64,000 nucleotides of DNA from Eledone cirrhosa. Lineage: Eukaryota. Below are positions 23,401 to 26,400 of the stretch, one piece after another. The position numbers and the translations under genes were made by a program. The stretch's first letter is position 1; every line of letters starts with the position of its first letter. The stretch lies in the NCBI GenBank assembly GCA_964016885.1, contig OZ024756.1, positions 26,660,001 to 26,724,000 of the forward strand. Reading direction: 5' to 3'. The notes beneath the pieces were generated by a model that was not told where the DNA came from, ran no database searches, and saw only the letters and a program-made list of their open reading frames with translations.

Positions 23401-26400
23401 ACAGGTGAAATTGTCAAGCAGCAGATTCCCAGTATTCTCAATATTCCAAATTCAAACACTACCAAGCGTAAACTGTAATTGTTTGTCTTTTCATGGTAAA
23501 TAACATAACACATATACTAACAAGGTGGCAAATTGGCAGAGTCATTAGAACATCAGATAGAATACTTTGTGATGTTTGTTCCGGCTCTCTGGTCTTTGAG
23601 TTCATATCATGACGAGGTCAACATTGTCTTTTTTCCCTTCGAGATCAATAAAAAAAAGTACCAGTCAAGTACTGGGGTAGATTATTATCTCTTTCTCACT
23701 TCTTTCTACTTTGTCATGTCTTTTGTATGGGTTGGATTTGTATATAAAAATAAACACGCACATTTTATTCAAAATGTTACATGAATTCAAAACCACCAAA
23801 CTCTGACATATGACTCTTTGACAAGTTCTAGCAAAGCAGTTGAGGCTGTGCTAGGACACCAGCATGACTGCATAGGTAGTGTCCAAAGATGAACAGTAAT
23901 CAAGCCATTTCAGATTAGTTGTTTTACTAGATATATATTAAAAAAATAGCTTACAATGTGCATCTAGGTTTAATGACATGAGAAAGAGAGAGAGGTTCAG
24001 GTCAAAAAGCTATCAGTCACCAGTCAACACTTACCTAAAATTTTATTGACAACTTCTTCTGTTTTGGAAACCTTTTCCACTTCTTTTTCTTCCAGACATT
24101 TGTGGTCGGAAGAGTGTCTATGTCTGAAAACAAATAAAAAAAAAAAAATTTTTTTTTTTTTAAATAGACACACTCTGAAAGTGATTGATTTGTTAGAAGA
24201 GCATCTGGCCATATAGAAAACCTGGCTAACAAGGGGTCGAGGAAGAATGATGAATTACACTTGGTTCACTCTATACAGCAGGAACTTATGTAAGTTGTGA
24301 ACCCTTGCTCTATCTGTGAGATTTTGAGCCACACACTAGTAGGCTATGCGAGTTTATAGCCATTTGGCCAACTAGAAATTGCAGCCAAATCCCCCCTCAA
24401 ATCACACCATTATGTCATAAAAGTAGGAAGAAACAAATTATTTAATCCTAGCTATTGAAAAACCAATGGGCTGGTCCTGGTTGGAATGTCTTTAATAATA
24501 GGATTACTTTATCATGACTGACCCAGGGCTAATCATATGCATGTGTGTATACATACAACCATTACAAGGTAGCAAAGTAAACACTTACTTTAAACAGACA
24601 TGAGCATTGCATCTGTCACAAATAATTACTTCAACACCATCTGCAGTACATTGCACCACGCTGCACTTATGAAATGAGGGCAATGCGCAATTTGGGGTTG
24701 GTCGATCACTGACATTACACTGCAAATATTTACATGAATGAAATATATATATATGCATGAACATATATACATATAAATATAAATAAACATATAAATGAAG
24801 TAATTCCGTCGGAAAAGTCCAGGAAAAAAGAGTGCTCTATGTAGGTTACAGAGCTTAATAGTTATGTAATAAACAACATAAGATAATTATTTCATTTACC
24901 AGTGGTTTCTTGAAAGCAAACAAAATTTGCTTTCAGTCATCAGAATGAAAACATCCTGGAGTATTTATTGACAGTGGATTTTAAAAACCACTGTCAATAA
25001 ATACTCCAGGATTTTTTCATTCTGATGACTGAAAGCAAATTTTGTTTGCTTTCAAGAAACCACTGGTAAATGAAATAATTATCTTATGTTGTTTATTACA
25101 TAACTAAATAAACATATATATATATATATATGTAAATTAGAATTGGTACTCTGAAATAGCTATATATATATGAATGTATATATAGTGTATTTTGCAATAC
25201 ACTGTATGCTTAATTAAAAGCATTTCGAAGACCTTATGCTATTGTTTTAGAGTAGTGACAGTCTCACTTACTTTAATTTTCAGCAAACAGGGGGAGATAG
25301 AGCTGACAGAGCCCTGTTCCGCATTTTTTTATGCTTATCAAAGCTAACTACTCCTCCTGTTTGCTGAAAATCATGGATGTTTGATTCTTATAGAATTGTA
25401 GTAAATAATCAGGAACTGATTATACAGAGCGGTTGCCGGTCAAGCAGAAATTGAAAATTAGAATTGGTGCTCTGAAATAGCTATATATATATGAATGTAT
25501 ATATAGTGTATTTTGCAATACACTGTATGCTTAATTAAAAGCATTTCGAAGACCTTATGCTATTGTTTTAGAGTAGTGACAGTCTTACGAACATTTTCTA
25601 TGACAAACGGCTTTCAGGAATGATTTAAGTTTGAGAACTGAGGTTCCACTGTATGTCAAATTTATGTATTTCTCTAAATTAAAATTGAAAAATATATATC
25701 AATTTGACATGTTTATATGATCAATATAAAGCAGCAAATTGGCAGAGTCATTAGAATGTTATATAGAATGCTTTGAGCTATTTATTTTGGCTCTCTGTGC
25801 TGAGAGTTCAAGTCTCACTCAGGTCAACTTTCATCCTTTCGAGGTTGACAAAAAAGTACCAGTGCAGTAATGGCTGTTGATTCTTTCTCTATATCTCTTT
25901 CTCACTTCCTCTCTGGTTCTCTGGAAGAAATTTGCCATGTTCAGCAGACATGGAGAGAGGATGAGCTTGGTGAGGTATAAAAATAAAATGGCCAAGAAAC
26001 ACTGTATGTCACTACGGCTCACTTTCAACTACATTAGGTGCTACATACATGTCTATATATTCAGTGTGTATATTCATATACATATTTATGGCGCCTCAGT
26101 TTATTCTCTACTGGCAGTGTATCATTTCATCAAAAATATAGTAACAAAAGAGTTACATTTTTGACGATATAAACACCAATTTGTAAATAATATGATAACA
26201 AACCTTACTACAGTCATGAGAATCAGGAAATTTATGCTCCAAGCTGTAATTAGACATAAAATAAAATATTACATTGATGCACATTAAGTACTCTCGGGTC
26301 TTGAATAATTATTAGTTTTCCAAATTTTTTCCAACCTCCCGGCTTATTAAATTTTACTAATCTATCTCTGGCGAAGTGGTAGCATTCCAGTGAAAACTAA

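Follow-up and report, generated by a model that had tools for sequence, protein, structure and literature searches.

A young head-to-head stump of a Hydra-type Penelope-like element with a hammerhead motif in each arm, in an intron of Eledone cirrhosa

Arms placed head to head, a palindrome at their junction, a tail at one end and a TSD make up a layout already published for Penelope-like elements (PLEs) (PMC3846280; PMC8557442), and how the inverted ends originate is listed as an open step in PMC8557442. Section 11 of the latter defines the Hydra clade by RWK, DKT, CxCX5C plus GIY-YIG at the C-terminus, and by the absence of an IFD and of a CCHH motif in the EN. One Poseidon protein nicks and extends both strands and two RT start sites bound the tail, and the hammerhead of the element PAc is protein-dependent and dispensable for insertion (PMC11167929). 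Opposite-strand hammerhead pairs 100–700 bp apart were reported in Schistosoma, and a lone minimal PLE hammerhead showed no cleavage (PMC4209133).

Within a 64-kb stretch of E. cirrhosa DNA, the whole of which was analyzed and is called the window, we found a head-to-head stump, young and lacking an ORF, that derives from a Hydra-type Penelope element and has the layout already published. Its features are given below.

24780–24793 (+): left TSD copy, 14 bp, in AT-rich/(TA)n DNA; the longest word common to both flanks.
24797–24858 (−): PLE "tail", 62 nt, on the left arm only.
24859–24982 (−): left arm, a 5′-truncated element 3′ end (pLTR region), sense to the host pre-mRNA.
24890–24950 (−): the type I hammerhead motif that reads sense in the host pre-mRNA, with cleavage predicted between 24897 and 24896.
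24974–24991 (no strand): junction, with the native micro-palindrome TTTTAAAA at 24979–24986.
24983–25106 (+): right arm, a second 5′-truncated copy, without tail.
25015–25075 (+): type I hammerhead motif that runs antisense to the host gene and has a quasi-palindromic stem III; H17 at 25068.
25105–25118 (+): right TSD copy, overlapping the arm end by 2 nt.

The arms are complementary at 122/124 positions with zero spacer, the mismatches falling at 24978/24987 and 24952/25013. Comparison with solo copies and centre classes showed that the first mismatch is native sequence crossing the axis from the left arm, and the left arm carries one private substitution at 24952. The inverted repeat at 24859–25106 that an earlier note on this DNA had described is therefore real, and its coordinates and pairing counts hold; its extent of 248 bp is exact for the arms, but the unit is larger and takes in the 62-nt tail to about 24797 and the 14-bp TSD. 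At the tail end, a further 3–5 nt to about 24792–24794 are ambiguous. The 14-bp TSD word occurs twice in the 64-kb window, at the two flanks alone.

Scanned on both strands with a hammerhead descriptor, the window yielded two motifs only, one per arm, which confirms that each arm holds a complete type I hammerhead motif as had been claimed. Both are built of a 7-bp stem I, CUGAUGA, a stem II of 10–11 bp, GAAA, a 3-bp stem III and GUA, and thus show the CUGANGA core, GAAA, NUH and three stems of the type I class, with H17 at 25068 (+) and 24897 (−). On the plus strand, CUGAUGA lies at 25022–25028 and is followed by a C25029·A25055 mismatch (10.1–11.1). The 61-nt motif alone folds as a hammerhead at −13.8 kcal/mol (z −2.6), and 4/200 shuffles were as good. 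The covariance-model check proposed in the earlier note failed: the Rfam hammerhead models gave no match, either in the window at the gathering score or in 24700–25300 at E ≤ 10. Weak miRNA-type Rfam matches were set aside, as they reflect the long hairpin only. RNAalifold on 30 family copies recovered stem II, did not recover the whole hammerhead and found no compensatory pair. Among the 30 close copies, 95% of 600 cells were paired with one two-sided change and no excess over shuffles, in copies too alike for covariation to bear on the fold. The C·A at 10.1–11.1 marks a subfamily, and in a sister subfamily U at 10.1 pairs with A11.1. The mismatch thus characterizes a high-copy subfamily, whose spread it has not prevented.

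The host gene lies on the minus strand and was mapped as follows.

30879–30822, 28303–28261, 26243–26204, 24719–24589 and 24123–24035 (−): host coding exons.
26204–26243 (−): coding exon 3, 40 nt long, which completes the first AN1-type finger; from an in-frame micro-exon search.
24589–24719 (−): coding exon 4, first half of the second AN1-type zinc finger.

The position of exon 3 sets intron 3 at 26203–24720 (−), and by this exon map the palindrome lies in coding intron 3. The earlier placement in intron 3 was thus right, and so was the stated distance of 170 nt to exon 4, on its upstream side (24890 to 24719); the exon 4 acceptor is 77 nt from the tail end. One weak zf-AN1 match was obtained (E 0.02, below the cut-off), and from it and from sequence motifs we tentatively take the gene to be ZFAND1-like. 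In run X4, the contigs span exons 4 and 5 only and end at exon ends; one of them covers 24589–24721 and then stops. This would fit normally spliced RNA, in an animal that may or may not carry the insertion. An Atlas search with a host exon gave no usable match, and PDB sequence searches returned nothing useful.

Other repeats were present in the window.

27346–27633 (no strand): older head-to-head hammerhead palindrome in intron 2, of another family, used as an internal control; arms 86% alike.
25131–25595 (motif on −): direct repeat of 321 nt, 1.45 units, of a high-copy family.
43063–43216: a separate AT-rich inverted repeat in the same 64-kb stretch, with 55-nt arms, 84% complementary, and a 44-nt spacer.

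The palindrome in intron 2 has a tail-like extension on its right arm, to about 27720, and its family comprises 1027 candidates at 86–90% identity with a TATATA stem III. In its cores, one arm has CCGAUGA and the second arm has GACA, where CUGAUGA and GAAA stand in most relatives. As it is of the same build and both cores are mutated, such cores decay.

The direct repeat is 95–98% identical to dispersed copies, and at G000:C2:208903151-208908167 about 16 units of its family stand in an array. The repeat holds a hammerhead-like type I motif with a U3-A8 core (UUGAUAA), present in 23/23 regex matches; stem III is palindromic, and the closing rod is long (z −6.85). With its direct tandem units and hammerhead, this neighbour does fit the layout of non-LTR retrozymes, and from its sequence it looks like one with the rare U3-A8 variant, a hammerhead variant reported in PMC4209133. 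The same assignment was rejected for the palindrome, which is inverted and belongs to an ORF-bearing family and is not composed of direct tandem monomers of 170–400 nt. The window copy of the U3-A8 motif (25305–25345, −) is sense to the host gene and has a private GAAA to GGAA core change. The earlier note held that sequestration in a duplex would let a self-cleaving motif persist in a host pre-mRNA, and a mutated free sense motif is what this idea predicts; the one case leans that way. A single GGAA change is unremarkable, because the repeat diverges by 2–5% from its relatives.

When the arm was searched against the 3.0-Gb genome, 1460 candidates were obtained, and the best 40 scored were mostly 97–100% identical. 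Exact matches numbered 555 for a 25-mer of the window subfamily, 2301 for a 20-mer of the sister subfamily and 4837 for a 22-mer common to both, with 0 for the reversed-pattern controls in each case. By these sequence matches, the family comprises thousands of copies, and the window insertion is a young one among many. Longer copies have a microsatellite-rich 3′ UTR between ORF remnants and the hammerhead. At five other loci, the arm lies 1.3–1.9 kb downstream of RT/GIY-YIG ORF remnants, where the C-terminal motif of the ORF precedes the same-strand hammerhead by 1329 nt (L031), 1778 nt (L032), 1880 nt (L061), 1456 nt (L067) and 1550 nt (L124).

A near-full element is present at L031, its 5′ end bearing a tail and part-arm in inverted orientation; it carries RWK, DKT, YRDD, the CxCX5 linker, in which Y replaces the last C, and then VVY..YVG. 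The Hydra-clade RWK near the N-terminus was seen in the L031 and L066 translations, the change from DKG to DKT in L031, L063 and L066, and the CxCX5C linker before a C-terminal GIY-YIG in L062 (CSCRKPDEC) and L066 (CNCRNKTNC). Flanks of the copies examined show the (TA)n insertion preference, with the hammerhead near the 3′ end. Compared by eye with supplement rows of PMC8557442, the family protein closely resembles Hydra-1_Obim. In a homology search, 3764 candidates included 258 relatives with a length of about 700 aa, the best 56% identical, and one of the 258 matches the GIY-YIG Pfam PF01541; three locus proteins scanned directly against Pfam had no match. Among 150 scored of 51869 candidates, the family showed no intact full ORF, the longest open frame being 507 aa. 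These sequences indicate that the palindrome arms are PLE 3′ ends, assignable to the Hydra clade by motifs and by-eye comparison. At other loci, ORF remnants lying upstream of this arm carry the Hydra-clade motifs, which supports the Penelope-like origin proposed in the earlier note. An assignment to Neptune was dropped, as the motifs fit Hydra.

L066 also holds an uninterrupted 830-codon frame (4427–6916, −) with RWR, DKT, YRDD, CxCX5C and an N/K/T-rich insert, apparently an intact Hydra-type ORF of another family judging by its translation, which is 47% identical to L031 over the RT stretch. The flanks of L031, L036, L038 and L039, and others, contain several unrelated type I hammerhead motifs with the same core and different stems, which suggests many hammerhead families in the genome.

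Arm pairs were counted by hand on contigs 1–2 only. Head-to-head pairs within 200 nt numbered 11 in the first 100 listed 25-mer matches and 14 in the first 100 listed sister 20-mer matches, and no tail-to-tail pair within 200 nt was present among those 200 listed matches. The inverted, head-to-head geometry claimed for the locus is thus borne out by its arms and by recurrence in the 25 listed pairs. Extrapolation from these 25 pairs in 200 listed matches would give several hundred such palindromes genome-wide. The axis lies 37–54 nt upstream of the core in 18/25 pairs, at a native U-rich run ending in TTTTAAAA, and elsewhere at 13–23 nt (six pairs) or 75 nt (one pair) upstream; the zero-spacer centre of the window locus was the same at 9 loci. 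Centres near the cleavage site were also seen (14 within 9 nt, 1 exact), with no clear spike of 5′ truncations.

The tail was on exactly one arm in 18/20 palindromic loci, a sample partly selected for resemblance in the centre or the full arm. The survey excluded L051, which has an internal duplication, and L009, L010 and L043, where the seed did not match. Tail matches in the loci examined, window duplicates included, were identical in 6/62 and within 4 mismatches in 56/62. Unlike the one-tail majority, L027 and L053 have mirrored flanks too (both arms tailed, or neither) and are possibly later inverted duplications. L057 and L058, 400 kb apart on G000:C2, have near-identical palindromes and flanks in opposite orientation and represent either a segmental duplication or a haplotype duplicate.

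Taken together, we consider it very probable that the locus is a young dead-end insertion of two hammerhead-bearing 3′ ends of a Hydra-motif PLE standing head to head, with the ribozyme a likely passenger, predicted to be locked in a 120-bp hairpin. The element endonuclease would have nicked both strands of the AT-rich site about 14 bp apart, and reverse transcription would have been primed from both nicks, a distal start yielding the tailed arm and a proximal start the tail-less arm. Both cDNAs would have ended some 40 nt upstream of the core, within the U-rich run, where a weak rU:dA hybrid may be the reason; the two cDNAs would then have annealed via TTTTAAAA, and repair would have fixed the product. 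Such joining of two separately primed cDNAs at the micro-palindrome is the route we favour, with some reserve, over a fold-back, in which one cDNA, or an antisense template, would turn back on itself at the micro-palindrome and prime its own copying, giving the same element and the same silence. The fold-back route is possible, if rather doubtful. Self-priming of this kind was proposed for head-to-head junction palindromes in PMC3846280, and the zero-spacer centres do sit at a native quasi-palindrome. In five of the nine zero-spacer centres, native sequence crosses the axis from one arm; this run-through arm is tailed in 3/5 and tail-less in 2/5 (L044 and L048), where the other, would-be copy arm is tailed. 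Because a fold-back copy cannot gain a tail absent from its template, fold-back is ruled against at L044 and L048. Filler junctions with both arms past TTTTAAAA (L016, L026, L054 and L055) also argue against it, as does the prediction of no stable hairpin for the cDNA end, for which a self-dimer of about −7 kcal/mol was predicted. Nine variants common to both arms, in 5/20 loci (L046, L052, L055, L057 and L058), count in favour of self-priming and fit fold-back copying or arm-to-arm conversion equally well. For two primings, the arms of L042 differ at one position that is variable between copies. The asymmetric tails, the self-pairing of the cDNA and the two-strand priming of Poseidon thus favour two primings, in an argument drawn from 2/5 loci and one discordant site, which is a small sample.

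If the 310-bp palindrome were a non-autonomous mobile unit, a MITE-like mini-PLE copied whole, the zero-spacer centre common to 9 loci and the same 248-bp extent at three loci among the window's best matches would fit. We consider this unlikely: the centres fall into three classes, the tail is on either arm relative to the centre, spacers vary at other junctions and the arm variants are locus-specific, as expected of a hot spot where such palindromes form anew again and again. A near-perfect zero-spacer palindrome could also point to a fold-back artefact of assembly, and no listed short-read contig spans the centre with 31 nt on each side, so that short reads settle the matter neither way. The 14-bp TSD, the one-sided tail, the unique host DNA with correct exon order on both sides, and the recurrence at other loci with different flanks, nine of them with the same centre, make such an artefact very unlikely.

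A single sense hammerhead (24950–24890), preceded by its antisense, is present in the host pre-mRNA. The predicted cost of the hammerhead fold is 76 kcal/mol in the palindrome versus 1.4 in the right arm and 3.2–3.5 in the left arm alone, and predicted folds of growing transcripts zip the duplex before the core is transcribed; L019, where a variant escaped the anchor, was left out of the folds. The antisense arm, transcribed first, would pair with the emerging sense arm, and the intron would stay uncut and be spliced out. A ribozyme born sequestered in a duplex of ~120 bp, as had been proposed, is therefore predicted by these folds, with the restriction that only one hammerhead is sense per transcript. 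Sequestration may not even be needed, because the lone minimal hammerhead of PMC4209133 did not cleave.

The further proposal, of an active ribozyme stored in the duplex and set free by ADAR or a helicase to switch the host pre-mRNA, found no support and is very unlikely. Octopuses are a group known for heavy editing, and this counts for a switch together with the intact cores, the predicted sequestration and the mutated free sense motif next to the palindrome. Activation of a PLE hammerhead by protein (PMC11167929) would also fit. The switch would, however, face the 76 kcal/mol barrier, of which simulated editing left 68 kcal/mol when all 45 antisense-arm adenosines were read as G and 24 when all were non-pairing; were half of the sites edited (50%), the probability that none of the five core A is hit would be 0.03. 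Even alone, the sense arm is predicted to be a hammerhead about 0.3–0.5% of the time. Stem III is predicted at +0.4 kcal/mol as a monomer hairpin versus −8.2 as a dimer helix with a same-sense partner, and in this model it looks dimer-dependent; the palindrome offers no such partner, and the descriptor scan found no same-sense family partner in the 64-kb window. A domesticated switch would be old, single-locus and conserved, whereas this insertion is young, unconserved, one of many and 97–100% identical to dispersed copies, and the older palindrome in intron 2 has decayed. Long duplexes are established ADAR substrates, and the hairpin is likely one as well, with editing that would damage the core sooner than free the ribozyme.

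A genome-wide version of the idea appears improbable to us: hundreds of stumps would act as self-locked cassettes, free sense intronic hammerheads would be purged or mutated and palindromic cores kept intact, and a helicase or element protein would open some of them, cutting host pre-mRNA, with heavy A-to-I editing. Literature searches, largely without subscription papers and bioRxiv supplements, found no paper on an ADAR-released intronic hammerhead and none on this element family.

Taken singly, the insertion is a transposon stump of an ordinary kind. Viewed as a class, such hairpins keep a record of the way in which Penelope-like elements make their inverted ends, and tail side, centre asymmetry and arm variants across the several hundred loci expected by extrapolation could separate two primings from fold-back. 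They also likely supply ADAR or Dicer with perfect double-stranded RNA from introns.

Among described systems, Hydra-1_Obim of Octopus and the Hydra-clade PLEs (Craig et al, 2021; PMC8557442) have the C-terminal GIY-YIG, RWK, DKT, CxCX5C, (TA)n targets and a hammerhead near the 3′ end in common with the window family, and Hydra-1_Obim is also alike in its ACCA-N-TGGT stem III. The window family differs from it in the CUGAUGA core, a longer stem II, the GUA site and, in the window subfamily, C·A at 10.1–11.1, and further in a longer, microsatellite-rich 3′ UTR and the 62-nt tail; the window copy is without ORF. With Pen2a_Av and other EN+ PLEs (PMC3846280; PMC8557442, Fig 2 legend), the locus has inverted, 5′-truncated pLTRs, a junction palindrome, one tail and a TSD in common, and the head-to-head truncation, one-end tail and TSD of these inverted pLTRs were all found here. 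Compared with the Pen2a_Av type, both window halves are cut to 124 nt and form a pure hairpin, and the tail has 62 nt versus 30–40 nt. The minimal type I hammerheads carried by PLEs of metazoans (Cervera and De la Pena, 2014; PMC4209133) are similar in their long helix II and small palindromic helix III suited to dimers, whereas in the window a monomer helix III of 3 bp can be drawn, the G10.1-C11.1 pair is absent and the motif is known from sequence. PAc, a Poseidon element of Anolis (Frangieh et al, 2024; PMC11167929), resembles the locus in its AT-rich target and has two RT start sites bounding the tail, as proposed here for the locus; with PAc, both strands were nicked and extended in vitro. 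PAc belongs to another clade, and its hammerhead overlaps the ORF start, whereas that of the window family comes after the ORF and 3′ UTR.
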